A stretch of DNA of 64,000 nucleotides from Patescibacteria group bacterium (GCA_041651155.1 JBAZJU010000006.1:4638-68637), one strand, 5' to 3'; shown: positions 11,858 through 57,279, counted from the stretch's first letter. Numbers and translations: made by a program. The notes: generated by a model not told the origin, from the letters alone.

Positions 11858-11911
11858 TTTAATTTTACGGATCAACCAAATCAAATAATATGCGAATGAT
11901 TATTTAAATTT

Positions 11912-12298
11912 ATGAATAACAAAGAAAATCCAATACCAATCTCGCACGGAAATGAAATAAATATACAAAAGCTAATTGATACTATAAAAGAAAAGTCATC
12001 AATGCTCGAAGAAATGCATACAGATATTGTTAAACAGATAGAAGATAAAGAAGCGCTTTACAATAGAGAGTTTATGAAATCTGCAAGTAAAATAAATTAT
12101 GGCTTGATAGCTGACTTAACTGAAGAAATTGAGACATTAAATGATATAGAAAAGAAAATTTTTGATGATCTACTTGAAGCTGAAGATTTATTGCAAGAAG
12201 GTGCAGAAAGCTTAAGAGATTATCAAGAATTGTCAGATTTGATTGAGAAAATAACTTTTTTAGAAAAATTGCTTAAAGCAGAACCAGGCAATAAATAA
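11912..12298 (+). CDS. Hypothetical coiled-coil protein
   Basis: 128 aa, acidic, heptad-like. Confidence 0.5.
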   Translation: MNNKENPIPISHGNEINIQKLIDTIKEKSSMLEEMHTDIVKQIEDKEALYNREFMKSASKINYGLIADLTEEIETLNDIEKKIFDDLLEAEDLLQEGAESLRDYQELSDLIEKITFLEKLLKAEPGNK

Positions 12299-38278: not shown

Positions 38279-40834
38279 ATGGATAATTTTTTCATTCAAT
38301 TAGCTAATTTTGAAATCAGCGGCCCTAAATTATACATCCTTTTAGGCTTAGTTATATTTGTCGGTGTTTTGATCCTGTGGCTGCTGTTTTTTTTAATTAA
38401 AAAAATATTAAAGAAAATTTTAAAAAATTCAGCCAGCTTTAAGCAGGCAGTACTTTTAATCCAGGTGCCAAAATATGAAATCGTGGAAACAGGCGAGCGG
38501 ACTCAGCCAAAAACCCAGGAAGATTTAGCAGAAAAGATTGCGACCATGGAAGCCTTTTTTGCCAATATCGCAGGTTTGCCGGCGCAGAAAGGCTTGAAAT
38601 ACGAATTTATTAACCGCACTGATCATTTATCTTTGGAAATAGTTTTGAAAGATGGCTTGATTTATTTTTATGCGGTGGTGCCGCAAAATTGGAAAGATTT
38701 TATTGAACAGCAGATAATGGCCCAGTTCCCCAAGGCTTTTGTGGCAGAAGTAGAAGATTATAATATTTTTAGCCCGCAGGGCGTGATAGCCGGCTCTATG
38801 CTCAAATTCAGGAAAGAATATATTTACCCTATTAAAACTTATAGAAAATTGGAAACAGATTCTTTGAATGCTTTAACCGGCGCCTTAAGCAAACTGGATA
38901 AAAATTCAGGCGCGGCTATTCAGGTCGTGCTCAGATCAGCCAACCCCAAATGGCATAGGTGGGGTCGCCAGGCTGCTTCAATCGCGCATCAGGGCAAAAA
39001 AGTCAGCGAAGCAATCTCAGAAGCAGGGGGCAGTTTTTTCTCACTAGATAAAATCTTAAAGTTTTTTCAGGGCTGGAGCAGTCCGCCAAAACCTGTGGCA
39101 GGTCAGGAGCCGCTCAAACCTTACCAGTTGTCTTCCCTGGAAGAGGAAATTCTGAAAGGCATTGAAGAAAAATCAGCCAAGGGCGGCTTGGAAGCAAACA
39201 TCAGGGTCATTGTCTCCGCAGAAAATCAAGAAAAGGCGAATATGTATCTGGAAAATATTTTAAATAGTTTCGGCCAGTTTAATATTTATGAATACGGCAA
39301 TGCTTTTAAAAGATATTCACCGAATAAAAATAAATTAATCAAAGATTTTATTTTTCGTGAGTTTGATGATAAAGCTAAGATGATCATGAATACAGAAGAG
39401 ATCACCTCTGTTTATCATTTTCCTTTGGGTCACACTGAAACGCCGAATATCATCTGGTTGCAGGCCAGAAAAGCTGCTCCGCCGGCTGAATTGCCCAGCG
39501 AAGGACTTTTAATCGGCTATAATGATTTTCGCGGCATAAATAGAGAAATACGCTTAACAGATGATGATCGCCGCCGCCATGTTTATATTATAGGTCAAAC
39601 TGGTACTGGTAAATCGCAGTTGCAAATTAATATGATCATCCAGGATATTGCTAATGGCAAAGGCGTTTGTTTCATTGATCCTCATGGTGATACAATTGAC
39701 ACGATCATGCAATATATCCCCAAAGAAAGGGCTGAAGATGTAATTCTTTTTGATCCTTCAGATACGCAAAGGCCAATGGCTTTAAATATGATGGAATTTG
39801 AAAATCCTGAACAAAAGACAATGGTGATAAATGAAATGATGAATGTCTTTGATAAATTGTATGATTTAAAAACAACCGGCGGTCCGATTTTTGAACAGTA
39901 TATGAGAAACACCATGCTTTTAAACATGGAAGATCCTGAATCAGGCTCTACTTTGTTAGAAGTTTCCAAAGTTTTATCAGATGAAGATTTTAGAAAATAT
40001 AAATTGTCCAAAACCAAAACTCAGGTAGTTAAAGATTTCTGGGAAAAAGAAGCAGAAAAGGCAGGCGGTGAAGCTGCTTTAGCTAATATGGTGCCTTATA
40101 TTACTTCCAAATTAACTTCATTTATTGCCAATGACGTGATGAGGCCAATTATCGCCCAGCAAAAAAGCGCATTCAGCTTCAGAAAAGCCATGGATGAACA
40201 AAAGATTATTATGGTGAAATTGTCTAAGGGCTTGCTTGGCGAAATTAATGCTAATTTATTAGGCATGGTAATTGTGGGGAAAATCCTTTTGGCTGCTTTA
40301 AGCCGAGTAGACCAGCCTGAGGCATCAAGAAAAGATTTTTATTTATATATTGATGAGTTCCAGAATTTTTTAACTGAGGGCATTCAGGTGATTTTATCAG
40401 AAGCCAGGAAGTATAGATTGTGCTTAACGATTGCCCATCAATTTATCGGCCAATTGGTAAAGAATAATGACACGCGATTTAAAGACGCGATTTTTGGCAA
40501 TGTGGGCAGCAAAGTAGCTTTCCGAGTAGGCGTGGAAGATGCGGAAATTTTTGCCAAAGAATTTGCGCCGGTTTTCAACCAATATGATGTGATGAACGTG
40601 CCGAATTTAAACGGCTTTATTAAGCCTCTGATTTTGGGCAAAGTTGTGCCGCCTTTTAGTTTTCAGCTGATGCCGTTTGAAACAAGGCCAAAAGCTAATC
40701 CTGAATTAGCCCAGGCCATTAAAGAACTTTCCCGTTTGAAATACGGCCGAGACAGAAATATTGTGGAAGCGGAAATTATTGAAAGAACAAAAAAGACAGT
40801 GGCTAAAGAAGAAAATGAGGATATCTTCGCTTAA
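38279..40834 (+). CDS. Membrane-anchored P-loop ATPase, VirD4/TraG-coupling-protein or HerA/DUF87-like (851 aa)
   Basis: N-terminal TM, Walker A IIGQTGTGKSQL, Walker B YIDEFQNF; architecture common in CPR type IV secretion/competence-like loci. Confidence 0.65.
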   Translation: MDNFFIQLANFEISGPKLYILLGLVIFVGVLILWLLFFLIKKILKKILKNSASFKQAVLLIQVPKYEIVETGERTQPKTQEDLAEKIATMEAFFANIAGLPAQKGLKYEFINRTDHLSLEIVLKDGLIYFYAVVPQNWKDFIEQQIMAQFPKAFVAEVEDYNIFSPQGVIAGSMLKFRKEYIYPIKTYRKLETDSLNALTGALSKLDKNSGAAIQVVLRSANPKWHRWGRQAASIAHQGKKVSEAISEAGGSFFSLDKILKFFQGWSSPPKPVAGQEPLKPYQLSSLEEEILKGIEEKSAKGGLEANIRVIVSAENQEKANMYLENILNSFGQFNIYEYGNAFKRYSPNKNKLIKDFIFREFDDKAKMIMNTEEITSVYHFPLGHTETPNIIWLQARKAAPPAELPSEGLLIGYNDFRGINREIRLTDDDRRRHVYIIGQTGTGKSQLQINMIIQDIANGKGVCFIDPHGDTIDTIMQYIPKERAEDVILFDPSDTQRPMALNMMEFENPEQKTMVINEMMNVFDKLYDLKTTGGPIFEQYMRNTMLLNMEDPESGSTLLEVSKVLSDEDFRKYKLSKTKTQVVKDFWEKEAEKAGGEAALANMVPYITSKLTSFIANDVMRPIIAQQKSAFSFRKAMDEQKIIMVKLSKGLLGEINANLLGMVIVGKILLAALSRVDQPEASRKDFYLYIDEFQNFLTEGIQVILSEARKYRLCLTIAHQFIGQLVKNNDTRFKDAIFGNVGSKVAFRVGVEDAEIFAKEFAPVFNQYDVMNVPNLNGFIKPLILGKVVPPFSFQLMPFETRPKANPELAQAIKELSRLKYGRDRNIVEAEIIERTKKTVAKEENEDIFA

Positions 40835-43103: not shown

Positions 43104-43724
43104 ATGCCTAAAAAAGAAACTCAGATATTTTATATACATGGAGGAATGACTTTTAAAAATAAAAGGGATTATTTGCATTTTTTAAAAAACAGAGATGTAA
43201 CTATCGAAAAGAAGATGAAGTGGAGCGACGCCTACTTGGAAAAAAAACTAGGCAGAAATTTCCAGATTATAAGACCCAGAATGCCACTTCAGGATAATGC
43301 TAAATATTACGATTGGGCGACTCACTTTGAAAGATATATCCCAAAATTAAAAAACAATATTATTTTGATTGGCGAATCTCTTGGCGGTATATTTTTGGCC
43401 AAATATTTATCTGAAAATACATTTCCCAAAAAGATAAGGGCAACATATTTAATCTGTCCTCCATTTGACAACTCGCTTCCGGGCGAAGATTTGGTTGGCG
43501 GGTTTACTTTGAAAAAAGATATATCAAAAATCGAAAAAAATTCTAAAAAGCTTTATCTGCTTTTTTCAAAGAACGACCCCGTGGTTCCTCCGTCTCAAGC
43601 TAAAAAATATGCCGCCAAGTTAAAAAATGCAAATATTATTATATATGACCACATTGCAGGACATTTTCAAATATCTGAGTTTCCAGAAATTATAAAAATT
43701 ATTAAAGCGGATGTAAGAAAGTAG
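43104..43724 (+). CDS. Alpha/beta-fold serine hydrolase (YdeN/RBBP9-like esterase family)
   Basis: GXSXG nucleophile elbow IGESLGG; catalytic His near C-terminus (HIAGHF); ~200 aa. Confidence 0.6.
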   Translation: MPKKETQIFYIHGGMTFKNKRDYLHFLKNRDVTIEKKMKWSDAYLEKKLGRNFQIIRPRMPLQDNAKYYDWATHFERYIPKLKNNIILIGESLGGIFLAKYLSENTFPKKIRATYLICPPFDNSLPGEDLVGGFTLKKDISKIEKNSKKLYLLFSKNDPVVPPSQAKKYAAKLKNANIIIYDHIAGHFQISEFPEIIKIIKADVRK

Positions 43725-43933: not shown

Positions 43934-45607
43934 ATGTCTTTAGCTTTATACAGAAAATACAGGCCGCAGACCTGGCAGGAATTAACCGGCCAGAATCACA
44001 TTAAAGTGACCTTGCAGCATGAAATTGAAACTGGCAAAGTTAGCCATGCTTATCTTTTTACTGGCCCGCGCGGGATCGGTAAAACTACCACGGCGCGGCT
44101 TTTAGCCAAGGCAATTAATTGCGAAAAGCGCCAGGAAGGCGAAAGCGAACCTTGCGGTCAGTGTGATTCATGCTTGGAATTAACTGCTGGCAATGATTTG
44201 GATATTTTGGAAATAGATGCAGCTTCGCATACAGGAGTTGATAATGTGCGCGAGAATATTATTGCCAACGCGCGTTTTACTCCTGCTAAAAGAAAATTCA
44301 AAGTGTTTATCATTGATGAAGTGCACATGCTGTCAATCTCGGCTTTTAATGCGCTTTTAAAAACCCTGGAAGAACCGCCGGCTCATGCCATATTTATTTT
44401 AGCTACGACTGAAGTGCATAAAGTGCCAGCCACTATTATTTCCCGCTGCCAGAGATTTGATTTTAAAAAAGTTAATGCTGATGATTTAATTAAGCGCTTA
44501 AGCTGGATGTGCCAGCAGGAAAACGTGAAAGTCACTAGTGATGTCTTAACTGATATCGCCCGCTTTAGCGAAGGTTCTTTGCGCGATGCTGAGAGCTTGC
44601 TCGGACAAATTCTCTCGCTTGGTGAAAAGGAAATTGGCAGGGCAGAAGCCAGCTTAATCATTCCTGCTTCAAATTATAATTTGGTTCTAGAGCTTGTTGA
44701 ATATTTAGTCTATAAAAATTTGGAAGCCAGCATTACCTTAATTAATAAATTAGTGCAGGAAGGCGTTGATCTTAATAAGTTTGTTGATGACTTGGTGGAA
44801 TTTTTACGCAAAATAATTTTGGCAAAAATCAGCGGAAGTTTAAAATCGTATTCTTTTGAATTGGATGAAAAAATGGAAAAAGCCATACTGGAGGTCTCGC
44901 AGAAATTTGAAGCGGCAGAACTGGTTGATTTGATTAATTCATTTAGCTCAAAAAAATTTGAAATAAAAACAGCGGCTATTCCTCAGCTGCCTTTAGAAAT
45001 CGCAGTGATAGAGTATTGCGGCAAAGGTTCCTCCTTTGCTTCTGGCGAAGCTTCGGAGGACAAGAAAGATGGGAAATTCCCGCCGGGCGGAGGAGCAATT
45101 TCAGGCAGCAAATTGGCAGACAAAGGAAAAGAAAATACAGGTGGTGCGAACAGCGCCACTTTAAAAAATTCAATTTCTGTGAATAAAGGCGACTTAAACA
45201 AAAAGATAAATATAAGTCTTGACAAAATAAAAAATAAATGGCATAATTTTTTAGTAAAACTCCAGGAGACCAATGCATCTTTAGTTTTTATTCTAAAAGT
45301 ATCAGAACCTTTAGAATTAAACGGTAATATCTTAAAGATCGGCTTTAAATATCCTTTTCATGAACAGCGTGTGAACCAGGCTAAAGTTAAAGACGCAGTG
45401 GAAAATATTTTAGCAGAATTTTTTAATGAGCAAATTATTGTTGCGACCAGCCTTTTGCCCAAGGATTATGAAAGTGATTTTATTAAAGAAGAAACTAAGT
45501 CTGATGAGGTTGAATTAGTGGAAGAAATATCCAGCCCTGTTAACGGTGAACAGCAAGCTATGATTGATAATTTGGTTAAGACGTTTGGAGGGAAGGTGGT
45601 GGAATAA
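43934..45607 (+). CDS. dnaX: DNA polymerase III subunit gamma/tau
   Basis: LYRKYRPQTWQEL, Walker A GPRGIGKTT, zinc module CGQCDSC, DEVHML, SRCQ sensor motif. Confidence 0.92.
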   Translation: MSLALYRKYRPQTWQELTGQNHIKVTLQHEIETGKVSHAYLFTGPRGIGKTTTARLLAKAINCEKRQEGESEPCGQCDSCLELTAGNDLDILEIDAASHTGVDNVRENIIANARFTPAKRKFKVFIIDEVHMLSISAFNALLKTLEEPPAHAIFILATTEVHKVPATIISRCQRFDFKKVNADDLIKRLSWMCQQENVKVTSDVLTDIARFSEGSLRDAESLLGQILSLGEKEIGRAEASLIIPASNYNLVLELVEYLVYKNLEASITLINKLVQEGVDLNKFVDDLVEFLRKIILAKISGSLKSYSFELDEKMEKAILEVSQKFEAAELVDLINSFSSKKFEIKTAAIPQLPLEIAVIEYCGKGSSFASGEASEDKKDGKFPPGGGAISGSKLADKGKENTGGANSATLKNSISVNKGDLNKKINISLDKIKNKWHNFLVKLQETNASLVFILKVSEPLELNGNILKIGFKYPFHEQRVNQAKVKDAVENILAEFFNEQIIVATSLLPKDYESDFIKEETKSDEVELVEEISSPVNGEQQAMIDNLVKTFGGKVVE

Positions 45608-45703
45608 GTTTAAAATTCAAAGTTAAAAGTTTAAATTTGCAGTTCAAAATTAAAAATTTTAATTTTTTTGTCATTTGTTATTTGTCATTTGATATTTCTA
45701 TAT

Positions 45704-45775
45704 TGGGGAGTAGCCAAGTGGTAAGGCACCTGCCTCTGGAGCAGGCATTCGTAGGTTCGATCCCTACCTCCCCAG
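45704..45775 (+). tRNA. tRNA-Gln (anticodon CTG)
   Basis: Cloverleaf by eye: acceptor tggggag/ctcccca, D arm gcc-aagtggtaa-ggc, anticodon stem cctgc/gcagg with loop ctCTGga, T arm gtagg-ttcgatc-cctac, discriminator g; CCA not encoded. Confidence 0.8.
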
Positions 45776-45951
45776 TCCTATATTTATCCGCAGAAGGTAT
45801 GCTTAAGCGCACATTTTTTCTCTTGGCAAGAATGATTTATGTTCAACAATATTTTATAAACGAATTAATATATGTCTATCGATAAGGAACTTAAATGTTG
45901 AAATGGCGCTGATATCAATTTAAAATTCTAACCGAATCGTAAAATTATTTT

Positions 45952-46851
45952 ATGCCCGAAATAAAGAGACCCGATATCAGTGAATTCAAAAATTTCGTTC
46001 TGCTCCGCGCGATAAGCGATAAACTTTTATTATCTGATATTCAATTAAAAGAAATTCAGTCCAACATCTTATTGGTTAATGGGACGAATAAGTTGGGACA
46101 AAAAGAAAATTTTATTTTCAAAAAGCAACGTAATCGCAGTCCGTTACTTGGGGACAATACTAACAATAGAGAGGCGCTATTTTATCATGTCATGGCAGAT
46201 GAGGTCACTTTTGATTTACCGCGGTATTTCGGGAGGGTTAATGATTTTGAAGTTTTTTCTTTTTTAAAAAAAGATGAAATGGAAATTAACACTGAGCAGA
46301 TGTTAAGTCCGCTCGAGAAATTGCAGAGAATTGGCATTGCAAAACAGGACAAGGTCATGTTTGCGGGGGAATACAGAGACAAAGACAAAATTATCCATTT
46401 TATAGACAAATTGCTTATTGATATTAGGAGGAATCCTTTGTTAAAGCCGACTGCGGATAAAATTTCTGAGAATATGGATTTATTTGTTCAAGCAATTGAT
46501 TACTTGAGCCAGTTACCCCAGGTTTTTGTTCATGGAGATTACTGGAGAAATAATTTGATTGTTTCGAACGGAAGAGTATATATTATTGATTGGGAAAACT
46601 GTCAGATAAATAACAACTACTACGATTTAACAACGTTATTCTATACTGAAAAAATCATGTTTGCTAATGAAAAATTTGATCCGACAATAAATGGTCATAA
46701 TGACATTCGGGCGATGGATTATAATTTTTTGCTTCAAACAGTATCGCAAATAATCCCGGAATTGGCGGGAAAGAAGGGTTCCCCCCACGACTGGGAGAAA
46801 AATTGGCTCGATGCCTTTATTGATATTATGAATAAATACGGTGTAAAATAA
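45952..46851 (+). CDS. Aminoglycoside-phosphotransferase (APH)-fold kinase family protein
   Basis: VFVHGDYWRNNLIV ... YIIDWENCQ (Brenner motif HGD, DxxxxN and IDWE motif). Confidence 0.65.
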   Translation: MPEIKRPDISEFKNFVLLRAISDKLLLSDIQLKEIQSNILLVNGTNKLGQKENFIFKKQRNRSPLLGDNTNNREALFYHVMADEVTFDLPRYFGRVNDFEVFSFLKKDEMEINTEQMLSPLEKLQRIGIAKQDKVMFAGEYRDKDKIIHFIDKLLIDIRRNPLLKPTADKISENMDLFVQAIDYLSQLPQVFVHGDYWRNNLIVSNGRVYIIDWENCQINNNYYDLTTLFYTEKIMFANEKFDPTINGHNDIRAMDYNFLLQTVSQIIPELAGKKGSPHDWEKNWLDAFIDIMNKYGVK

Positions 46852-46864
46852 TAAACTTATTTTT

Positions 46865-47557
46865 ATGATTAGAGCTACAAATCTTTTGTCTAAATACTAT
46901 GGGGAGACAGGCGGATACCTGAGGGAGCATGACACATTTTTACGTTCGGCGGATATCAAAAAGGATCTGCTTTTCTTAATTAGGGCGCTTGATATAAAAA
47001 AGAGTGATGTCATTTTAGATATTGCTTGCGGCCAGGGGCGTCATAGCAACGCTTTGGCGGAAAAGGGTTATCAAGTAGACGGTGTTGATTTTTCCCAATA
47101 CTTGCTTGATAAGGCAAGGGCAGGGGAAAAAGAATTATCAAGGGGAAGACCTAATTATTATAAAGCTAATGTTGAACAACTAAATTTGAAAAAAAAGTAT
47201 AGCAAAGCCTATTGGTTTTTTTCTGATTTGGCGGATATTGATTTGCCCAAGGCAATTGTCTCTATAAGTCATAATATGAAAGTAGGGGGAATGGTTCTTC
47301 TCGACACGGATAATATTTTCAGAATCCTTGCCTACCTTTCTAAAAATCACGATTCGGGTTTTGATTTTGACGCTAGCCGCTTGGAGCTTATTGTTAAAAA
47401 AAACAATTTGCGCATAAAATACCCCGTCTTACCTTTGTGGGAACAATGGCTGAGGGCATCTGGTTTTTTCATTAAAGATTTTTGGGGAGATTATAAATTT
47501 AGCAAGTATTCGGTTAAAAGCCCCAGATTAATAATATTAGCAAAAAAAATCGCTTAG
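46865..47557 (+). CDS. Class I SAM-dependent methyltransferase
   Basis: Motif I VILDIACGQGRH, post-I VDGVDFS, motif II-like MVLLDTD. Confidence 0.65.
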   Translation: MIRATNLLSKYYGETGGYLREHDTFLRSADIKKDLLFLIRALDIKKSDVILDIACGQGRHSNALAEKGYQVDGVDFSQYLLDKARAGEKELSRGRPNYYKANVEQLNLKKKYSKAYWFFSDLADIDLPKAIVSISHNMKVGGMVLLDTDNIFRILAYLSKNHDSGFDFDASRLELIVKKNNLRIKYPVLPLWEQWLRASGFFIKDFWGDYKFSKYSVKSPRLIILAKKIA

Positions 47558-47591
47558 GTTCTTGAACTTAAGCGATTTATGTTTGCGAGCT

Positions 47592-49025
47592 TTATGCTGT
47601 TGTCGCATGGGAATTAACTGTAGCATATAGCTGGTTGACTTTGCACTTGAAAAGATCAGGTTCTTCAGTAAGTATCCACATTAATTCCAGTATTGAATCG
47701 TGAATTTCTTCGCATTTAAAGTGCGGGCTTTTGAGTTCTCCAGTCGTCTGGTAATTTTCTCCGCGACAATTACCGGCGCACAAATACCGCACATCGCATG
47801 CCGAACATTTGGGGTTTAAAGAATCTATGTTTAAAGTGCGGAGTTCCTTTAAAATGGGTGAGGTTTCCCAAATATCGGCAAGATTAGTATCCAGAAGGTT
47901 CCCCAGCTTAAAGTCCTGTAATGCTGTGTCTGCGCAGGGGTAAAGGGTTCCATCAGCTTTGACGTAAACAGCTCGATTCGTGCCGATGCCACAACTATAG
48001 CTTTTCACTCCTCCCGCAATGCCCATGATTTGATTAGCAAAAGTAGAACACATCATCAACTCTTGCAATCTTGGCTCATTGCGAATCGCTTCAAACACTT
48101 TTCGGTAGAAAGTGGCTAAAGGCACTGGAATTAGAAGTTGTTTGGTTTTCTTGCTATTGCCTCGGCCTACATGCATCATATTTAGGCAATTAAACCCTTC
48201 CACGCCAAGCGAGTTGGCTAAAATCATCGTTCCTTTCATGTCGTCAATGTTTTCAGCATGAACGAACATATTTATAGCCACAGACACACCGCTTTGGCAA
48301 AGTGCTCTTATATTTTTTATGGTGAGATTAAAGGTATCTTTGCCCCTGATGTACTCATGTGTGGCTTTTTGGCAGCCATCAAGCGAAATTGACATCTTTA
48401 GTCTTGGATACTCAGCCAGCTTGGCGATTTGGTTTTTCGTAAGCAGTGTGGCGTTGGTATTGACTTGGACAAAAAAACCTTGGTTGTGGACATATTCAAT
48501 TAAGTCTAGGGCATCTGGACGCGTAAATAGCTCGCCACCTGTTAGAGCTACGCGTGAAATGCCGTTTTGCCAAGGCATTTTAGTGAGTTGATCGACAACC
48601 ATTTTTATTTGTTTAGTTGTCATTTCACTTGGCATCTTTTGGCTGGCCATTGCATAGCACATCGGACAGGTCATATTGCATTGCTGGGTAGTAGCAATGA
48701 CCAATACATTTTCTACTTCATTAACCTGGAAGTCGGGGGAATATTCTTTAGCTTGAGCCATTTCGCCGTCAATAGCCAAAACTCCCGAGGAATAAAGCAA
48801 ATCTTTTAGATCGGAATAGACAACTTCCGCATCTATTATTGAAACAGACAAAATGCTAGCAATTTTTTCAATGATTTGCGATGACTCCCCAAGATTAAAA
48901 GCTTTGAGGATATCAATGACTTCATTAGATGCCGAAAACCAGTAAGGTCTTGAAGGAAAAATTACTATAGCATTGTCATCTCGGCTATAGCACGAAGGTT
49001 CTTCGGACATTGTCACTTTACTCAT
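47592..49025 (-). CDS. Radical SAM/SPASM peptide maturase with N-terminal PqqD-like RRE (~110 aa)
   Basis: CX3CX2C at CNMTCPMCYA, LTGGELF, C-terminal SPASM Cys cluster (CSTFANQ ... CGIGTN ... CADTALQ ... CSACDVRYLCAGNC). N-terminal IVIFPSRPYWFSASNEVIDILKAF resembles RiPP recognition element. Confidence 0.85.
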   Translation of the reverse strand: MSKVTMSEEPSCYSRDDNAIVIFPSRPYWFSASNEVIDILKAFNLGESSQIIEKIASILSVSIIDAEVVYSDLKDLLYSSGVLAIDGEMAQAKEYSPDFQVNEVENVLVIATTQQCNMTCPMCYAMASQKMPSEMTTKQIKMVVDQLTKMPWQNGISRVALTGGELFTRPDALDLIEYVHNQGFFVQVNTNATLLTKNQIAKLAEYPRLKMSISLDGCQKATHEYIRGKDTFNLTIKNIRALCQSGVSVAINMFVHAENIDDMKGTMILANSLGVEGFNCLNMMHVGRGNSKKTKQLLIPVPLATFYRKVFEAIRNEPRLQELMMCSTFANQIMGIAGGVKSYSCGIGTNRAVYVKADGTLYPCADTALQDFKLGNLLDTNLADIWETSPILKELRTLNIDSLNPKCSACDVRYLCAGNCRGENYQTTGELKSPHFKCEEIHDSILELMWILTEEPDLFKCKVNQLYATVNSHATTA

Positions 49026-49088
49026 CGATATTTCTCCTTTTTTTAAAAAATGGCAGGGAGGTTGAACCCACCCTGCCTGGCCATTGAG

Positions 49089-49181
49089 TCACTGACCCCG
49101 ATAGTACATCACGCCCTGCGATTCTTTGGTCAGGACGATGACGCCACAATTGCCGCGATTCAGAATCCGGAATCGTTTCAT
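49089..49181 (-). CDS. Candidate precursor peptide (30 aa) MKRFRILNRGNCGVIVLTKESQGVMYYRGQ immediately upstream of the RRE-radical SAM/SPASM gene
   Basis: AGGAGG 5 nt upstream of ATG (49181). Stop followed by hairpin ggcagggtgg-gttcaa-cctccctgcc plus T-tract, then SD and radical SAM start. The overlapping 70-aa six-frame ORF (49018-49230) reads through this hairpin and the next gene start, so it is less plausible. Confidence 0.55.
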   Translation of the reverse strand: MKRFRILNRGNCGVIVLTKESQGVMYYRGQ

Positions 49182-49563
49182 GTGTACCTCCTTTCATAGA
49201 ATTTGGTAATGAGATATGCTTTACTGCCATATTTCATCCATTCATAACTTAACACTAATTTAGTTAGGTTGTCAAAAGAAGCGCTTTAGCGCTTTTTATA
49301 GTGTCTCATTTTGTGCTTAAATAGCCCGACCCAGGTGCCTCAAATCAGCTCTTGAAAAGAATCTCAAAATTCCTTAAAATATCCCTATAACACAGGTCCT
49401 AGACCGGATTGTTCAGCCTTCGCTCTCCGAAGCGAAAAGTGCTCACGCACTTTTTGCATAGGCGAGCCACTACTCAATTTAAGCTTGGCGAGCTACGGCT
49501 GGTGATGACCAGCCAAATGCACCAAATCTAGAAGATTAATCGTAATATATTATAATAGCTAGA

Positions 49564-50250
49564 GTGCAAATGTCTCCAAGATTTAATTACGATTCTATCA
49601 CTACTTATTATCAAAAAATTAACAAAATTTATTTTTCAAAACATTTCTATTATATTGTAGCGGGTGTTTTTTTATTTTGTGTTGCAGGTTTATTTTTGTA
49701 TGTAAATTATCTGCGGGATAATAGAGATTTGGCTCAAAAAAATATGTGTGATGCAGTGACACAATCATTTGCTCCTTTACCGACAGAAATAAATCCTAAC
49801 TTTTTAACCCAGATAAATGATTGTTTCATCCCCAGCGCTGCTGTTTATGGCTATTCTTTGCGGATTACTTCAGGATTTCGGACAGTAGCGGAGCAGAATC
49901 AAATATATAATCAAGGACGAAATGATGATGGTGATATTGTGACCGAGGCGCCAGGCGGCAGAAGCATTCACAACTTTGGCTATGCCGCAGACGTGGTTGA
50001 TAGCAATCATGAATACAATATAAACTGGAAAAGACTGGCCAAGATTGGAGCATTCTGCGGGCTTGAAGCAGGTGATGATTGGGATTTTGCCCATTACGAA
50101 TATCGGGGCGGCCTAACCACGGCTGATTTTGTCACTGGCAGCCGACCCTCGCCGCTTATGTTGCCATGTGCTGTAATGCAAAAGCGGGCAAAAGACGGCC
50201 AGCCTCTAACACTTAAGGATTTACAAAATTGTGGAGCTCCTAAGTTTTAA
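49564..50250 (+). CDS. Peptidase M15 (VanY/D-alanyl-D-alanine carboxypeptidase-like) family protein with N-terminal TM anchor
   Basis: SGFRTVAEQNQIY, SIHNFGYAADV, DWDFAHYEY match the zinc-binding H/D/H motifs of the M15 family. Confidence 0.7.
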   Translation: MQMSPRFNYDSITTYYQKINKIYFSKHFYYIVAGVFLFCVAGLFLYVNYLRDNRDLAQKNMCDAVTQSFAPLPTEINPNFLTQINDCFIPSAAVYGYSLRITSGFRTVAEQNQIYNQGRNDDGDIVTEAPGGRSIHNFGYAADVVDSNHEYNINWKRLAKIGAFCGLEAGDDWDFAHYEYRGGLTTADFVTGSRPSPLMLPCAVMQKRAKDGQPLTLKDLQNCGAPKF

Positions 50251-50313
50251 TAATAAATATTTTAATAATTTTTAATAATTTCCGTCTTTGGCGGGAAATT
50301 TAACCTTAATTTT

Positions 50314-51024
50314 ATGGATAATGAAACAAGTCAAGCTCAACCAGGCAATGCTCAAAATTTACAGCCAGAAGCGGAGAAAATAACAATTTTGCCAGAAGCT
50401 CACAGTAAGCAGATAAAAAAAGGGGAAGCAATAAAAAAATTTATTAAAGATAACCTGAGAATAGTTATTATAATTGCGGTGATTGTAGTTGTGGGCATTT
50501 TGGCGTATTTTTTTAGAGGTTTAGTTATTGCCGCTACTGTTGATGGCAGTCCCATTAGCCGCTTGGCCGTGATTCAAAAGTTGGAAAAAGAATCAGGCAA
50601 AAATTTATTAGATTCTTTGATTACGCAAAAGCTGGTGCAAAACGCAGCCAGCGCGAATAAGCTCAGTGTCAGCGATGATGATGTCAATGGCGAGATTAAA
50701 AAAATAGAAGATCAGGTCGCCTCAATGGGCAGCACGATGGATGAGGCTCTCTCAGCGCAAGGCATGACCATGGCTGATTTAAAAGAGCGGATTGTTTTGC
50801 AAAAAGAATTGGAAAAATTGCTGGCAGACAAAATTAATGTGGCTGATGAAGAAATTGCGCAATACATTAAAGATAATAATATTACGGTTCCAACAGGGCA
50901 GGAAGCAGCTACCAATGACCAGATAAAAAGTGAAATAAGTTCGCAAAAGTTTAATAGCGAAGCCGAGACTTATATTGCAGAATTAAAAGCCAAGGCCAAT
51001 ATCCAATACTTTGTAAATTACTAG
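50314..51024 (+). CDS. SurA N-terminal-domain-like periplasmic chaperone-type protein (single TM anchor, no obvious PPIase domain)
   Basis: TM IVIIIAVIVVVGILAYFF then GSPISRLAVIQKLEKESGKNLLDSLITQKLV, the typical SurA_N pattern. Confidence 0.45.
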   Translation: MDNETSQAQPGNAQNLQPEAEKITILPEAHSKQIKKGEAIKKFIKDNLRIVIIIAVIVVVGILAYFFRGLVIAATVDGSPISRLAVIQKLEKESGKNLLDSLITQKLVQNAASANKLSVSDDDVNGEIKKIEDQVASMGSTMDEALSAQGMTMADLKERIVLQKELEKLLADKINVADEEIAQYIKDNNITVPTGQEAATNDQIKSEISSQKFNSEAETYIAELKAKANIQYFVNY

Positions 51025-51119: not shown

Positions 51120-52028
51120 ATGCAATGGTTTTGGATTTCTTTGGCAGCGTCTGCTATTTGGGCGCTAGTCAATCATGCTGACAAATACATTATCTCCAAA
51201 TACTTTGTAGGCAAAGGCGTTGGCTCGCTTGTGATTTTTACGAGTTTAAGCGGCTTTATCTTTGCTCTTTTTATTCTACTCTTTGACCGCAGCGTTTTGG
51301 CTTTTGATTTTTTAAGCGCTGTGATTATTGCGATTAGCGGCGCGATTTTAGTGGCTTCGTTTATCCCATATCTTTATGCCCTGGAAAAAGAAGAGGCTTC
51401 CATGGTTTCTACGCTTTTTCAATTGATTCCAGTTTTTAGTTATTTTTTAGCTTTATTTTTTCTTAATGAAACACTAAGCCTTAAGCAAATTTTTGCCTCG
51501 CTTCTAATACTTTTAGGCGCGGTTATTATTTCTCTGGATCTTTCAAAAAAAATAAATTTAAAATTAAGGCCTTTTCTGCTGATGGTTGTTTCTTCATTTA
51601 TGAGCGCTTTAAGCGCGCTTATTTTTAAAATAATTGCGCTGGAGCAAAATTACTGGGGGACTGCTTTTTGGGAATATATCGGTGGCGCGTTTTTTGGCTT
51701 ATTTTTGTTCACCTGTATTGGTTTATACCGAAAACAATTTTTAGCCACGATTGCGAAAGGCAGGCTAGTTGTTTTTAGCATAAATTTTTTGGCTGAACTT
51801 TTAAATATCATTGCCAAGCTTTTAGTCAATTTCGCCAGCCTTTTAGCGCCGCTGACTCTGGTTTTGGTGGTTAATGGCTTTCAGCCTCTTTTTGTTTTTG
51901 TCTACGGAATTTTGATTACGATTTTTTTGCCGAAAATCGGCAAGGAAACTTTGACGAAAAAAGTGATTGTCCAAAAGCTAATTGCGATTTTTGTTATTTT
52001 TATCGGGGTATATTTTCTTTTTGTATAG
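51120..52028 (+). CDS. EamA/DMT-family transporter (10 TM)
   Basis: 302 aa, two repeated 5-TM halves. Confidence 0.6.
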   Translation: MQWFWISLAASAIWALVNHADKYIISKYFVGKGVGSLVIFTSLSGFIFALFILLFDRSVLAFDFLSAVIIAISGAILVASFIPYLYALEKEEASMVSTLFQLIPVFSYFLALFFLNETLSLKQIFASLLILLGAVIISLDLSKKINLKLRPFLLMVVSSFMSALSALIFKIIALEQNYWGTAFWEYIGGAFFGLFLFTCIGLYRKQFLATIAKGRLVVFSINFLAELLNIIAKLLVNFASLLAPLTLVLVVNGFQPLFVFVYGILITIFLPKIGKETLTKKVIVQKLIAIFVIFIGVYFLFV

Positions 52029-52102: not shown

Positions 52103-52594
52103 ATGAAAAAAGTAGTTTTTGTTTGTTTGCTGGTCAGCACCTTGTTAATTTCGGGAAACTTCATCTATTCAAAAACAACTGCGACAGTTATTTTTGGAAC
52201 CTGCCAGATGCAGGACAGGTTGCCTGATCCAGTTTGCACGCCAGGTGCGATTTTTCAGGTGACTGAAGAGGATATTTGCGTCAAAGGGTACACTAAAAAA
52301 GTGCGCAATGTGACTGCCAAAACAAAAAACTTGGTCTTTCAGGAATATGGCATTACCACGCACGCCAAAGGCGAATACGAGGTTGATCACTTTATTCCCC
52401 TGGAATTAGGCGGATCCAATGACCTCAAAAACCTCTGGCCTGAACCAGCCGAACCTCGGCCAGGGTTTCATGAAAAAGACAGGGTGGAGAATTATTTGCA
52501 CAGGCAAGTCTGCACAGGCCAGATGACTTTGGCTGAAGCGCAAAAACAAATACAGACAAACTGGCTTGAAGTTTACGAGCAAATCATAAAATAA
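52103..52594 (+). CDS. Secreted HNH-motif nuclease family protein
   Basis: Signal peptide; EYEVDHFIPLELGGSNDLKNLWPE resembles the HNH beta-beta-alpha metal-finger motif. Confidence 0.5.
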   Translation: MKKVVFVCLLVSTLLISGNFIYSKTTATVIFGTCQMQDRLPDPVCTPGAIFQVTEEDICVKGYTKKVRNVTAKTKNLVFQEYGITTHAKGEYEVDHFIPLELGGSNDLKNLWPEPAEPRPGFHEKDRVENYLHRQVCTGQMTLAEAQKQIQTNWLEVYEQIIK

Positions 52595-52776
52595 GTCAGA
52601 CGCTCCTGCATTGGGGCGTTTTTTTTAATACCTGCTTAATTGTAAAATTTATTATTGAGAAGGCAATTAGTGAGATTTAATAAATTTTTAACCAAAATTT
52701 AATTAGTTTTTTTATATCTTATTAAGACAGGCTGTATTTTGACAAAACAGCAAAAAACCAAAAAAGAGGAGGAATT

Positions 52777-53484
52777 ATGGAGTTGTTTAAGGTCTTAGAT
52801 TTGAGCAGGCAGGATTTGTCCGCAATTTGCAGGCAAATTACCATTCCGCTCAGCCACAGTTTTAGTCTGCGGCAAGCCACCCTGGCTGACATCCCCCGCA
52901 TAGTGGAAGTGGATAAAAAGAGTTTTGGCGCAGAAGATCTGGCCATGACTGAGGAAATGATGACCAGTCGCATCAAGATTTTTCCCGAAGGCAATTGGGT
53001 TCTGCAAAAGGAAAAGGAAATTGTCGGCGTCGGCTGCAGCATGCTAATCAGCGATGATGAAGACAAAATCACTTCCTGGTCCGAGCTTACCGGCAATGGA
53101 ACCATTAGCACGCATAAGCCTGACGGCAAAGCGCTTTTAGGCATAAATGTGAGCCTGCTGCCGGATGTCCATGGTTTTGGTTCGGCTTTTTTAAATGAGT
53201 TTACCCACATTTTAGTCGTGGGCTTAAAACTGAAATTGGCTTTTGGGGTGGGCAGGCTGCTTGGCTATAAAGAGTTTGCTGACAAAATGAGCCCGCAGGA
53301 ATTCCTCTGCCTTTGCGTCGCAGAAAATAATATTCTGCCAGTTTCGCCGGTTGTCTCATTTTTAATGAGAGCTGGCGGCAAACTAATTAAATTGGTGCCG
53401 AATTATTGGCCTGTTGACACTGACAGCCTTGGCTACGGCGTCTTGATGGAATGGGTAAATCCCTATTGGCGGTTTTTAAGCTAA
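52777..53484 (+). CDS. GNAT-family N-acetyltransferase-like protein (higher local GC)
   Basis: RQATLADIPRIVEVDKKSFG N-terminal motif typical of GNAT; rest unassigned. Confidence 0.45.
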   Translation: MELFKVLDLSRQDLSAICRQITIPLSHSFSLRQATLADIPRIVEVDKKSFGAEDLAMTEEMMTSRIKIFPEGNWVLQKEKEIVGVGCSMLISDDEDKITSWSELTGNGTISTHKPDGKALLGINVSLLPDVHGFGSAFLNEFTHILVVGLKLKLAFGVGRLLGYKEFADKMSPQEFLCLCVAENNILPVSPVVSFLMRAGGKLIKLVPNYWPVDTDSLGYGVLMEWVNPYWRFLS

Positions 53485-53528
53485 TAAAAAAAGCCTGACT
53501 TCTTTTTAGCAGTCAGGCTTAAATCTTT

Positions 53529-54569
53529 TTAAATATTACATTTTTCCAGCCATTCTTTTTTGCAGGCGCAAGTCAGATTGCTTAGCAAATTTAGGTCTGG
53601 CATTTGGCGATAATTTTTTAGCTGCTTGTAAATCGCAGCGGAACAGCGCGGACAGTTTTTGGGCACGGCCAAAGGCAGGGGATATTCATTTTCAAAATTG
53701 CCGATTTGAATCGGACCCAAATGGTGAGTTTTTTTCAGCACTTCAATGATGCTCCACAGCCAGGGCGGCTGATACATTCCCTGCTCGTAGATTACAGCCA
53801 TTTTTGTGCCCGGCTGGACAAAGGCAGACTCCAGACCGACACTGTCGCTGCCTGATTGAAAAGCAAATTCAATCGTTTTAATCGCTTCAGCGATGGCCAG
53901 GCGTTCGTTGACGCCAACAGGCTTTAAAAATACATAAGTTGAAACTAGGACATCCTGGGCTTTTAGCACTTTAACAGCCTTTTGATAATCAGCCCGGCTA
54001 AAGCCTTTGTTAATGCATTTTTGCCTGATTTCATCATCTTGAGTTTCCAGGCCAATAGCCACTTCCAGCTGTTTTGGGCCTAATTGCTTTTTCAGCGCCA
54101 TGATTTTTTCAAGACTGATCAGCTCTGCTCTAGACTCAATTAAAATATGCCGGCAGCTTGCGTCATCTTTCAGAGAAGTGAGAATTTTTTTCTGGGCAGT
54201 CAAGGGCAGATCCAGGAAACTTCCGCCGGTAAAAATCATAATTTTTCTCGGACCCGAGATCAGCTGCAGGCCCAGCTGAAACATCAAGGCCAAATTTTTG
54301 CCTGAGAAAGGGATATCCTGGGTGAATTCCTTGACAGCCTGCTGGAATCCGCACATCGTGCATTTTCCCCAGGAACAAGGACCTGGTAAAAGCACATACC
54401 CGACGCTTTCGGCTTTATTTGTCTCCGGACAGTACAGAGATTCCAGGTAAGCAAACTCTTCGCCCCGGGTTAAGAAGAAAACTATTTTTCTGCATATTTT
54501 TTTGCCCAGGACGATTTTTAAGAAAATGAGAATCCTAAAAAGAAGATTGCGGCTGAAATTTTTCATCAT
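53529..54569 (-). CDS. Radical SAM-like protein with noncanonical CX4CX2C cluster
   Basis: GPCSWGKCTMCGF near N-terminus; FTGGSF; C-terminal CPRCSAAIY ... CACKKEW. Family not assigned. Confidence 0.55.
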   Translation of the reverse strand: MMKNFSRNLLFRILIFLKIVLGKKICRKIVFFLTRGEEFAYLESLYCPETNKAESVGYVLLPGPCSWGKCTMCGFQQAVKEFTQDIPFSGKNLALMFQLGLQLISGPRKIMIFTGGSFLDLPLTAQKKILTSLKDDASCRHILIESRAELISLEKIMALKKQLGPKQLEVAIGLETQDDEIRQKCINKGFSRADYQKAVKVLKAQDVLVSTYVFLKPVGVNERLAIAEAIKTIEFAFQSGSDSVGLESAFVQPGTKMAVIYEQGMYQPPWLWSIIEVLKKTHHLGPIQIGNFENEYPLPLAVPKNCPRCSAAIYKQLKNYRQMPDLNLLSNLTCACKKEWLEKCNI

Positions 54570-54676
54570 GCCTCCTTTCTATTTTTTTCAAGGTCCGCTA
54601 AGCTCTGTCTGATTATTTATAAATTTAACCTATTACTATTTTCTTGGCAAGTAAAAGAGAAGTGTAAATTAATTTT

Positions 54677-56854
54677 TTGGACTTATTTATGGCTTTTATT
54701 ATCAGCTTAATTATTACCGTGCTTTTGGATATCCTGATCCTTTATTTGGGACTGCTGGTATTTAAAAAAAATCCTCAGGGCAAGATTAATCAAATTTTTT
54801 TCATTCTGGCTTTTGCCATTTTAAGCTGGATAGTTTTTAATTTTTTGGAAAACGAAATCAGTTATTTGCCGCTGGCCGCTTTTTTTTTAAAGCTTGATTT
54901 TTCAACCGGCCCTTTGATTGTCAGTTTTTTCCTGCTATTTGCGGTTTATTTCCCTGACCGGGCGGAAATTTTGGCAATCTGGAAAAAAATATTATTAGCC
55001 GCGGTCTGCGCTCTGTTTGCCATTTTGCCGTTTAGCAATCTGCTGCTTAATAATTTTACGATCAAAAATCGCGGCATCCGTTACGAGGAGGGGAGCCTGT
55101 ATGAAGCGTATGCAATCTTTTTGCTGGGCATGATCATGTGGGGCAGTTATATCCTAATAAAAAAATACTTGAGCTATACCGGCCAAAAAAGATTGCAAGT
55201 CATCTACGTTTTAGTAAGTTTCGGCCTAACTGGCCTGATTACCGCAGTGATAAATTTATTTTTTTCAAACAGCCTGCCGATTGAAGTCTCAAGAATCGGC
55301 ATCTATTGCTTTATTATATTTATCGGCAGTACAACTTATGCCATGGTGCGCCATCATCTGATGGATATCAGGGTGATTATCCAAAAAAGCTTGGTTTTTA
55401 CTTTTTTGCTGGTAATAATTTCTGTCCTTTACGCGCTGATAGTTTTTTCCGTTAATTTTATTGCTAAGGGTTTGTCCCTGAATTGGTTGATATTTTCCGC
55501 CGCCCTCACCGTGATTATCCTCTCTTTTACTTTGCCTGTTTTAGAAAAAAAATTCACAAAACTGACTGACAAAATTTTTTTTAAGGCTCCCATTGATTAC
55601 AAGGAGGCGCTGAAAACATTAAGCTATATTTTTGCCACGGAAATAAAACTGCCCGAACTAGTCAAAAAAACCCGGCAATTTCTGCAAAAAACATTTAAAA
55701 TTGACTTGGTCAGCTTTTATTTTTCGGCCAGCATAAAAAAATATTACCGCATTTCCTCTGCTGATAAGAATAAGATTTATTTTTTGCCTGCCAAGGGCAG
55801 TTATCTGGCTAAATATTTTACCAGCCAGTCAAGCGTTTCCAAAATTATTGCCAGAGACGATTTAGAATGGCAGGCAGCGGCGGATAAAACTAAAATCGCG
55901 CGCAAGATGATTTTAGAAATGGACGCGCTTAAAGGTGATTTAGTTATCGCGATTTTCGGCCAAAAAGAGCTTTTAGGCATAATTTGTCTGGGACATAAGC
56001 TTGATGACAATCCATATTTCAGCCAGGATATTGAGTGGTTTGACATTATTGCAAAGCAATTAGGCCTGGCGTTGGAAACTTCATTGCTTTATGAAAATTT
56101 GGAGGATTTAGTGGCGGAAAGGACAGAACAATTAAAACAGGCGAATCAAAAATTAAAGCAAATCAGCGCGGCCAAATCAGAATTCGTTTCTGTGGCCTCG
56201 CACCAGTTAAAGACTCCTTTGTCAGTCATCAGAAATATTTTTTCTTTGCTAAAAGACGGGGATTTGGGCAAAGTCACAGCGAAGCAGTCTGATTATGGGC
56301 AAAGAGGCTTTAAGCAAAGCGAGAAATTAATCAAATTAGTCAAAATGCTTTTAAATATCAGCAGGATTGAAACAGGCAGACTTAATCTTGAGCTGAGCAA
56401 AAGTAATCTTGATCCTATCATTAAAGAGCACCTGCCAATGTTTGAGACTTTAGCCAAACAAAAGAAAATACAAATTCAGTTTTCGCCGGGTTTAGACAAC
56501 AGGCTGTTTAATTTTGATAAGAATTTAATAGGCGAGGTCATAGATAATTTACTTGATAATGCAATTAAATACACGCCTCAAGGCAAGATTATAATTAAAA
56601 GCCAAAAAATCGGCAAACTGGCCAGAGTCAGCATTAGCGACACTGGCCTGGGCATCAAGCCTGACAATCTTAAGGAATTATTTCAAAGGTTTATCCGCGG
56701 CAGCGACAAAAAAAAGATCGCGATTGCCGGCACGGGCTTGGGCTTATATTTTTGCCGGCGCGTGATTGAGGTCCACAATGGCAAAATTTGGGCTGAAAGC
56801 CCTGGCCTGGACAAAGGCGCTGTTTTTATTTTTGAATTGCCCATGATCAAATAA
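54677..56854 (+). CDS. Sensor histidine kinase with ~10 TM N-terminal domain, GAF-like linker, HisKA and HATPase_c
   Basis: H-box VASHQLKTPLSVI, N box DNLLDNAIKY, G boxes DTGLGI and GTGLGL. Confidence 0.85.
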   Translation: MDLFMAFIISLIITVLLDILILYLGLLVFKKNPQGKINQIFFILAFAILSWIVFNFLENEISYLPLAAFFLKLDFSTGPLIVSFFLLFAVYFPDRAEILAIWKKILLAAVCALFAILPFSNLLLNNFTIKNRGIRYEEGSLYEAYAIFLLGMIMWGSYILIKKYLSYTGQKRLQVIYVLVSFGLTGLITAVINLFFSNSLPIEVSRIGIYCFIIFIGSTTYAMVRHHLMDIRVIIQKSLVFTFLLVIISVLYALIVFSVNFIAKGLSLNWLIFSAALTVIILSFTLPVLEKKFTKLTDKIFFKAPIDYKEALKTLSYIFATEIKLPELVKKTRQFLQKTFKIDLVSFYFSASIKKYYRISSADKNKIYFLPAKGSYLAKYFTSQSSVSKIIARDDLEWQAAADKTKIARKMILEMDALKGDLVIAIFGQKELLGIICLGHKLDDNPYFSQDIEWFDIIAKQLGLALETSLLYENLEDLVAERTEQLKQANQKLKQISAAKSEFVSVASHQLKTPLSVIRNIFSLLKDGDLGKVTAKQSDYGQRGFKQSEKLIKLVKMLLNISRIETGRLNLELSKSNLDPIIKEHLPMFETLAKQKKIQIQFSPGLDNRLFNFDKNLIGEVIDNLLDNAIKYTPQGKIIIKSQKIGKLARVSISDTGLGIKPDNLKELFQRFIRGSDKKKIAIAGTGLGLYFCRRVIEVHNGKIWAESPGLDKGAVFIFELPMIK

Positions 56855-56892
56855 ACAATTAAATATTTTTTAACAATTTAATTTTTAAATCT

Positions 56893-57279
56893 ATGAAACT
56901 GGAAGAGAAAACTATTTTAATAATTGAAGATGAGCAGGATTTGGCCGACACTTATAAATTAAAGCTAAAAAATGCGGGTTACAATGTCATTATTGCTGCT
57001 GACGGGCTAAAAGCCTTGGCAGCGGTCAAGGAAAACAAGCAGATAGATTTGATTCTTTTGGATCTTATCCTGCCCCAAAGAAGCGGGTTTTCCCTATTAA
57101 AAGATTTTAAAGAAAATCCCGAATCTGAGAAGATCCCGATTTTTATTTTGTCTAATTTGAGCCTGGAAAAGGAAATTGACCAGGGGCTGAAATTGAAAGC
57201 TGACAAATACCTGATAAAAACAGATTATACTCCGGAAAAAATCGTCAATCTGGTGAATGAATATTTTGCCGGCAAATAA
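56893..57279 (+). CDS. Response regulator, stand-alone receiver domain
   Basis: IEDEQDL, phospho-acceptor D in LILLDLILP, K in conserved position (KADKYLIK). Confidence 0.8.
   Translation: MKLEEKTILIIEDEQDLADTYKLKLKNAGYNVIIAADGLKALAAVKENKQIDLILLDLILPQRSGFSLLKDFKENPESEKIPIFILSNLSLEKEIDQGLKLKADKYLIKTDYTPEKIVNLVNEYFAGK

Follow-up and report, generated by a model that had tools for sequence, protein, structure and literature searches.

The stretch of DNA analyzed here (the window) comprises 64,000 nucleotides (nt) from a Patescibacteria group bacterium (GCA_041651155.1 JBAZJU010000006.1:4638-68637). Directly 3' of a tRNA-Gln(CTG) gene it carries on the plus strand the genes of an APH-fold kinase and a class I S-adenosylmethionine (SAM)-dependent methyltransferase, which converge on a minus-strand pair consisting of a short peptide gene and the gene of a radical SAM/SPASM enzyme; a stretch free of open reading frames (ORFs) and the gene of an M15/VanY peptidase follow (Table 1). 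An earlier note on this region had described the same arrangement, and ARAGORN and Pfam confirmed its placement of the tRNA, the kinase, the methyltransferase, the radical SAM/SPASM enzyme and the M15 peptidase, as did the ORF analysis for the empty stretch ahead of the peptidase gene. In our opinion, which we hold with moderate confidence, the locus is best explained as a compact cassette for a peptide that is made by ribosomes and modified after translation (RiPP), present here as a four-gene version in a hypervariable site between tRNA-Gln and a pair of M15 and SurA-like genes.

The predicted precursor peptide and its candidate transcript signals

Two minus-strand ORFs of 70 and 30 amino acids (aa) overlap in different frames upstream of the radical SAM gene. 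Related loci were gathered via relatives of the enzyme and amounted to 15 genome and 50 metagenome loci, about 45 of which are distinct. Wherever the DNA of a locus covers the region upstream of the enzyme, it contains the 30-aa frame, which is the only conserved one. The 70-aa ORF (49018-49230) was rejected as the precursor; similar ORFs in relatives are by-products of their overlap with conserved DNA. The precursor and radical SAM/SPASM pair proposed earlier thus stands as a RiPP-like pair, but with the 30-aa and not the 70-aa ORF as its precursor.

The related loci provided 32 distinct peptides and 34 distinct DNA versions of the peptide gene. Among the 32 peptides the residues G10, N11, K19, E20, Q22, G23, M25, Y26 and Y27 are invariant, and I6, N8, L17, T18, S21 and R28 are conserved to at least 90%; counted by DNA version, both Y26 and Y27 are found in 34/34 and R28 in 33/34. 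The core LTKESQGxMYYR is near-invariant while its codons vary freely. For the invariant residues every synonymous codon is used somewhere in the 34 DNA versions, with six codons for Arg and four each for Leu, Ser and Gly, which indicates that the constraint acts at the level of the protein and not of the DNA or RNA. Furthermore, the peptide is more conserved than the enzyme, with identities of 60-89% across loci compared with 49-70%. Judged from these sequence comparisons, the peptide is a translated and strongly constrained gene.

A search with the peptide in 1.84 billion representative proteins retrieved seven clusters of 29-75 aa with the same C-terminus. Neither Pfam nor NCBIfam contains a model for it. 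No paper on the peptide motif was found in the literature, and for Patescibacteria (candidate phyla radiation, CPR) in combination with radical SAM RiPPs the literature search returned only general surveys of biosynthetic gene clusters. A 1149-aa repeat protein that also matched the peptide (P0125) was judged to be a chance resemblance of beta-hairpin repeats and discarded; its immunoglobulin-like repeats (NNCGSSVLTKGSQPSGVTYYWQ) resemble residues 10-27 of the peptide, probably by chance.

Ahead of the peptide gene a promoter-like site can be read from the DNA (TTGACA, an 18-nt spacer and TGtTAAGTT), and TTGACA-type promoters are located at similar distances in many relatives. This site and the terminator-like hairpin in front of it are putative elements. 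Nearly all relatives have a GGAGG-type site ahead of the peptide. Between the peptide and the maturase gene lies a hairpin with a folding energy of -26.6 kcal/mol (z = -2.2). A strong GC-rich stem-loop was detected in 32/32 distinct peptide-to-enzyme spacers examined; its sequence differs from spacer to spacer and a U-tract is often located behind it, the stems have 10-14 bp in most cases and the spacers measure 55-92 nt in all but one of the 32. Such an arrangement is expected if the amount of peptide transcript exceeds that of the enzyme transcript, and the hairpin is a candidate for an attenuator. At the other end of the enzyme gene, the inverted repeat that separates it from the convergent methyltransferase gene has 20-nt arms, which are 85% complementary and 2 nt apart, and might act as a bidirectional terminator.

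An Rfam scan of the window and of 49000-49650 returned tRNA only. The ORF-free stretch upstream of the M15 gene shows an unusually stable fold on the plus strand (z = -3.5) with several strong hairpins, which are without a match in Rfam. One part of this stretch is the promoter region of the peptide gene and the final 48 nt or so form the upstream region of the M15 gene, which leaves about 49300-49515 unassigned.

Table 1. Features of the tRNA-Gln region, with positions counted from the first nucleotide of the window.
Feature	Position	Strand	Evidence or remark
tRNA-Gln(CTG)	45703-45778	+	ARAGORN; Rfam 66 bits
APH-fold kinase	45952-46851	+	Pfam APH, E = 4e-11
Class I SAM-dependent methyltransferase	46865-47557	+	Pfam Methyltransf_25/11
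Inverted repeat, candidate bidirectional terminator	47542-47583		between convergent methyltransferase and radical SAM genes
Radical SAM/SPASM peptide maturase (predicted), 477 aa	47592-49025	-	Pfam Radical_SAM, SPASM
GC-rich hairpin with U-tract, candidate attenuator or partial terminator	49045-49077	-	fold
Precursor peptide (putative), 30 aa, MKRFRILNRGNCGVIVLTKESQGVMYYRGQ	49089-49181	-	conservation in relatives
Shine-Dalgarno sequence AAAGGAGG, 5 nt before the peptide ATG	49187-49194	-	sequence inspection
Terminator-like hairpin (49274-49297), then promoter-like site before the peptide gene	49246-49297	-	sequence inspection
M15/VanY peptidase	49564-50250	+	Pfam VanY
Alpha/beta hydrolase	43104-43724	+	
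dnaX	43934-45607	+	
SurA-N-like protein	50314-51024	+	
EamA transporter	51120-52028	+	
ORF-free stretch	49231-49563		after the 70-aa ORF; 49182-49563 counted from the real peptide start

The enzyme, its partner genes and the predicted chemistry

The assignment of the maturase is based on Pfam matches to Radical_SAM (E = 9e-23) and SPASM (E = 1e-10) and on the conservation of its metal ligands. The CX3CX2C motif (C116, C120, C123), the GGE motif and the SPASM cysteines C345, C364, C407, C410, C416, C420 and C438 (7/7) are all invariant in 22 homologues with 47-70% identity. An AlphaFold2 model with a predicted local distance difference test (pLDDT) score of 87.8 starts with four beta-strands and three helices, followed by the radical SAM barrel; the strands cover residues 3-33 and the three helices residues 35-79, with a pLDDT of about 90. 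According to this model, residues 1 to about 85 would form a domain similar to a RiPP recognition element (RRE) and are predicted to recognize the peptide. The closest solved structures are SkfB, SuiB and CteB. The model aligns to CteB over nearly the full length with template modeling scores of 0.65-0.72 and to SuiB as well, and the profile of the maturase aligned to CteB from residue 37. Among the NCBIfam families, four scored 154 bits (TIGR04053, cut-off 395), 151 bits (StsB, cut-off 625), 128.6 bits (MftC, TIGR03962, cut-off 265) and 99.4 bits (PqqE, TIGR02109, cut-off 381). About 280 homologues of the maturase are present in the protein collection, and the sources with names are nearly all Patescibacteria lineages; some sources automatically annotate members of the family as MftC.

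The likeness to SkfB and CteB, which are the best structural and sequence matches, together with the 151 bits of the StsB model and the presence of a Cys at position 12 of the window peptide, would fit a sactipeptide or ranthipeptide, in which the sulfur of a Cys is linked to a carbon in a thioether as in these closest solved relatives. This Cys is the only one in the peptide, however, and was found at that position in just 4/34 DNA versions; elsewhere position 12 is occupied by R, S, H, K, A, N, P or E, and another conserved Cys is absent. As no Cys is conserved in the peptide and the StsB score is far below the cut-off, we consider a thioether very unlikely and this explanation effectively refuted.

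The radical SAM core also gave two PADLOC matches to pVip (74 and 58 bits), and the region is variable between relatives in the way defence islands are, which brings a viperin-like anti-phage defence into consideration, made up of the radical SAM enzyme and the kinase with the small ORF as an incidental feature. The matches span only the generic core (residues 111-289), and the 477-aa enzyme has a complete SPASM domain and an N-terminal domain of the peptide-binding-like type, whereas viperins have about 300 aa and possess neither of these domains nor a precursor. Moreover, the small ORF is always present under strong selection at the protein level and the kinase is usually absent, so that a defence function of this type seems scarcely credible.

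Extra radical SAM enzymes were noticed at some of the related loci. Some loci with more distant relatives of the maturase (clade B, see below) contain one or two additional radical SAM paralogues near the cassette (L011, 2539-3846 and 11514-13103; L012, 6507-7961). A radical SAM/SPASM enzyme with 32% identity and a similar N-terminal domain (L057, 1688-3343) is accompanied by an unrelated 54-aa precursor that contains Cys. This pair may represent a sister family with different chemistry, and it was set aside as evidence on the present family owing to its unrelated precursor.

For the composition of the cassette the ORFs of 16 loci were clustered. By their enzyme the related loci form a closer clade A, with at least 61% identity, and a more distant clade B, with about 50-55%. 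Enzyme and methyltransferase are the only families common to all 16 loci, and peptide, hairpin and radical SAM enzyme co-occur at every related locus with upstream DNA. At nearly all loci the methyltransferase gene is a direct neighbor of the radical SAM gene. Both genes converge in clade A; in clade B the methyltransferase gene is located downstream in the same direction, and this difference in orientation implies that the adjacency of both genes survived rearrangement. The methyltransferase is a core gene of the cassette.

The kinase, which shows the motifs HGDYWRNN (HGDxxxxN) and IIDWE, is encoded upstream of the methyltransferase in the same direction, and 13 nt separate both genes. It is limited to clade A, where it was found in 4 of about 13 loci (the window, L002/L050, L005 and L018); the orthologues are 35-40% identical and always located directly upstream of the methyltransferase with a gap of 5-13 nt. 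As these four loci are dispersed in the radical SAM tree of clade A, we regard the kinase as a genuine yet dispensable accessory, which probably was present in the ancestor of clade A and disappeared several times. Its presence in a minority of cassettes argues against a core tailoring enzyme. The earlier note had suggested that kinase, methyltransferase and radical SAM enzyme form one tailoring set; of these, the methyltransferase is a constant partner of the peptide and radical SAM pair, but the kinase is not. Its further idea that the kinase could activate Ser/Thr side chains for elimination finds no support, as a lyase or cyclase is absent and the peptide has no conserved Cys.

Taken together, we infer the following order of events for the RiPP cassette. 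The 30-aa precursor gene would be strongly expressed from its own promoter-like site with the help of a strong ribosome-binding site, and the hairpin behind it would let a part of the transcripts continue into the maturase gene. In the maturase the radical SAM core would be combined with the RRE-like domain and with a SPASM domain that binds two auxiliary iron-sulfur clusters. The N-terminal half of the peptide (FRILNRGN..VV) could dock on the RRE-like domain, and the radical SAM site could then abstract a hydrogen within LTKESQGxMYYR, which would lead to an intramolecular cross-link. Afterwards, the class I methyltransferase would methylate the product, and in some lineages the APH-type kinase might contribute by phosphorylation of the peptide or by self-protection.

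With regard to the type of cross-link, it is known that radical SAM/SPASM enzymes connect C3 of Tyr with Cbeta of Arg in an i/i+2 arrangement in triceptides (PMC11002830). Because the conserved Y26-Y27-R28 of the peptide fits this pattern, a carbon-carbon bond between Tyr26 (or Tyr27) and a neighbor, for example in a three-residue Tyr26-Cbeta(Arg28) cyclophane, is our leading guess. This guess, drawn by analogy, is one of low confidence, and a link of Tyr to Glu20 or to Lys19 would be just as conceivable.

Several observations weigh against the assignment to a RiPP pathway of this kind. The enzyme is below the curated cut-off of every NCBIfam family, and the triceptide family is absent from the best 25 of 82 NCBIfam matches, all of which are below their cut-offs. 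In a Pfam search with residues 1-105 of the maturase a PqqD/RRE hit was absent, and because Pfam does not recognize PqqD the proposed role of the N-terminal domain in peptide recognition is derived from the predicted fold. In two of the loci (L026 and L044) a methyltransferase was not detected. Finally, a secreted RiPP would usually be accompanied by a protease, a transporter and an immunity gene, all of which the cassette lacks.

The genomes of Patescibacteria are tiny, and their capacity for biosynthesis is considered small. A three-gene cassette for peptide modification has been kept across several lineages of this group despite their reduced genomes, and as the precursor hardly changes, we assume that its product has one conserved function as signal, cofactor or effector rather than that of a variable antibiotic. 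A more far-reaching version of this idea, to which we assign a rather low probability, is a new Patescibacteria-specific class of RiPP or a peptide-derived cofactor or signal, with a previously undescribed cross-link in KESQGxMYYR, subsequent methylation and one conserved target or role. Such a single molecular target or role in these reduced, host-dependent bacteria would account for the stronger conservation of the peptide compared with its own enzyme. The system is of a familiar kind, and as an uncharacterized and unusually conserved RiPP cassette of Patescibacteria it is a good target for experiments; with a core of about 2.4 kb it is small enough for direct heterologous reconstitution.

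Gene turnover at the tRNA-Gln site

The window is 88% coding, has a GC content of 0.28-0.45 per kb and carries 56 of its 59 long ORFs on the plus strand, and it looks like a Patescibacteria genome. For the analysis of synteny we used seven contigs (L067-L073) whose DnaX is 74-82% identical to that of the window. Upstream of the site the gene order CysS, Dus, CorA, a TraG-like gene, a gene for a 194-aa protein, dnaX and tRNA-Gln(CTG) is kept up to the contig ends, and in most of the seven contigs the genes of an extracytoplasmic function (ECF) sigma factor and of a DUF5667 protein are kept upstream as well. On the 3' side of tRNA-Gln, gene content differs in almost every relative: the tRNA is directly followed by the SurA-like gene in L071 (DnaX 82%) and L067 (78%), by an HNH gene in L069 and by other genes in L070 and L072. 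Kinase, methyltransferase, enzyme and peptide were found at this site in 0/7 relatives. The tRNA itself does not belong to the cassette and delimits the variable region on the left. The check on synteny proposed in the earlier note thus yielded relatives without the insert, and from the absence in all seven it follows that the block behind the tRNA is accessory at this site.

In the simplest reading of these gene orders, the M15 and SurA-like genes would be resident and the segment at about 45.8-49.5 kb with kinase, methyltransferase, enzyme and peptide would be an insertion into a hypervariable site. This reading has to be set against a number of negative results. The 19-mer of the tRNA 3' end has no second match in the window even with up to three mismatches, so that the direct repeat expected in the earlier note was not recovered, and direct words of at least 10 nt common to 45690-45960 and 49180-50330 were not found either. 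No recombinase, integrase or transposase was found among all genes scanned at 45.9-57.3 kb. The cassette genes do not deviate in GC content from the window: the four genes have values of 0.35-0.42 and lie within one standard deviation (sd) of the 59 window genes (mean 0.377, sd 0.046), which also applies to GC at third codon positions (GC3). The claim of a richer composition at 45.9-49.3 kb was not confirmed, apart from a somewhat low fit of synonymous codons for the radical SAM gene (z = -2.2, the minimum of the window) and the methyltransferase gene (z = -1.6). As repeat, integrase and GC deviation are all absent, the term insertion rests on the comparison with genomes that are 74-82% identical in DnaX, and loss from the relatives instead of gain in the window may be an alternative.

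The same absences bear on the model built on the earlier note, according to which the region would be an integrase-mediated tRNA-Gln island with five genes including M15 as one unit and a kinase that serves for elimination chemistry. The position of the block directly 3' of the tRNA and its absence from relatives agree with such an island, as does the order in L067 and L071, where the tRNA is followed by the SurA-like gene and M15 is missing too. In addition, the tRNA-Gln 3' end and its downstream flank form a 31-nt direct repeat in L069 (CGAATCCCTGTCCCCGAGTTTTGCTTATAAA) at 11770-11800 and 11853-11883, 83 nt apart, which looks like the scar of an attachment site and indicates that events of the integration type readily affect this site in the lineage; the window itself is without such a scar. 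However, a classical tRNA-integrated island is not shown in the window because attachment repeat, integrase or transposase (between the tRNA and 57 kb) and deviating GC or GC3 are all absent, and the occasional kinase, the missing lyase or cyclase and the non-conserved Cys are as inconsistent with this scenario as the behavior of the M15 gene described below. What is left of the earlier proposal is an accessory block next to a tRNA, and in its full form we regard the island as quite improbable. The tRNA-flanking site is a hotspot of gene turnover without a visible integrase in the window.

In other genomes M15, SurA, dnaX and tRNA-Gln were never found beside the cassette, and in its vicinity only occasional unrelated tRNAs occur within a few kb. 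The earlier inclusion of M15 in the island is contradicted by this result and by two loci (L074 and L075) in which M15 and the SurA-like gene, with 65% and 70% identity, are neighbors as a native pair in another context without the cassette; the window and both loci share homologous sequence in the last 48 nt or so ahead of the M15 start. The M15 protein is a membrane-anchored cell-wall hydrolase similar to CwlK/L-Ala-D-Glu peptidases, which is resident and does not belong to the cassette. Its matches in the PDB are Ply500 and LysB4, and the named sources of 103 homologues are Patescibacteria/CPR except for one Nanoarchaeota and one unclassified "bacterium". The NCBI annotation of this gene gives 168 aa, and a 228-aa ORF from a GTG start adds a transmembrane helix. 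The longer form is probably correct, since homologues of 227-229 aa align over the full length.

The surroundings of the site provided some further observations. Just upstream of tRNA-Gln, units of about 90 nt occur twice in tandem in L073 (about 11800-11982) and once in L068 (about 11750-11825); each opens with 12-13 nt from the start of the tRNA (TGGGGAGTAGCC) and continues with unrelated GC-rich sequence. Behind dnaX two clearly different types of tRNA-Gln(CTG) are found, one in the window, L068 and L073 and the other in L067, L069, L070, L071 and L072. A TraG/VirD4-like coupling protein (DUF8128, 38279-40834) is encoded at the same position in 6/7 relatives, which are all contigs that reach it, and appears to be resident and not part of a mobile element. 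A second accessory patch in the same variable region (52103-57279) has the highest GC3 of the window (z = 1.4-2.7). It encodes a secreted HNH nuclease, an acetyltransferase-like protein (52777-53484), a histidine kinase/response regulator pair and on the minus strand a radical SAM protein similar to the archaeosine enzyme RaSEA (53529-54569, 182.6 bits with a cut-off of 212). In the relatives examined this patch is missing except for the HNH gene, which is kept in L069 and L070. In L002 the peptide gene adjoins a gene that is distantly related (27% identity) to the acetyltransferase-like gene.

Relation to known radical SAM/SPASM systems

The most similar systems of known structure are CteB/thermocellin, SuiB/streptide and SkfB, which share with the cassette a predicted peptide-binding-like N-terminal domain, the CX3CX2C motif, the SPASM domain with two clusters and a precursor gene immediately upstream on the same strand. 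The window enzyme is only 15-20% identical to these proteins, and the peptide differs from CteA and SkfA in the lack of a conserved Cys and from streptide in the lack of Trp. In contrast to these systems, the core of the peptide is near-invariant and not variable, a class I methyltransferase is constantly present and transporter and protease are absent. The triceptide systems XncB and YhhB also combine a radical SAM/SPASM enzyme with a short precursor that contains an aromatic-x-x motif, as in Y26-Y27-R28, but in the cassette the motif is present once and not repeated.

With respect to tRNA-linked islands, the locus resembles these elements in its position 3' of a tRNA, its absence from relatives, the hypervariability of the site and the scar in one relative, and it differs in the lack of a flanking repeat, an integrase and a compositional signature.

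The cofactor systems mycofactocin (MftA/MftC) and pyrroloquinoline quinone (PQQ; PqqA/PqqE) resemble the cassette in several respects: the precursor is very short and highly conserved with Tyr as an essential residue, the enzyme is of the radical SAM/SPASM type and a hairpin is located behind the peptide gene. A methyltransferase is also encoded in some mycofactocin clusters. It is conceivable that the product is a small cofactor of this type, for which Tyr is cross-linked, the peptide is trimmed by housekeeping proteases and the methyltransferase completes a compound for intracellular use. The near-invariant peptide, which is more conserved than its enzyme as is the case for PqqA and MftA, the moderate enzyme scores with the MftC and PqqE models and the presence of Glu20 and Tyr26/27 among the invariant residues agree with this possibility. 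Since protease, exporter and immunity genes are absent from the cassette and the conservation of the peptide is extreme, a cofactor or signaling role stays the main rival. On the other hand, both enzyme scores are below the cut-offs. The peptide ends with MYYRGQ and not with Gly-Val-Tyr as in mycofactocin, and mftB/D/E/F are absent nearby; its Glu20 and Tyr26 are six residues apart instead of the E-x3-Y spacing of PQQ, and pqqB and pqqC are absent as well. Furthermore, a patchy cassette in a hypervariable site is more suitable for an accessory trait than for a core cofactor, and we therefore regard a cofactor of the PQQ or mycofactocin type as unlikely.

As the defining features of sactipeptides, mycofactocin and PQQ were looked for and are missing, the cassette does not belong to any of these families. 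Returning to the RiPP cassette that we favor, its parts would function in the manner of a radical SAM/SPASM RiPP pathway with a fused RRE, of which it would be a new family.

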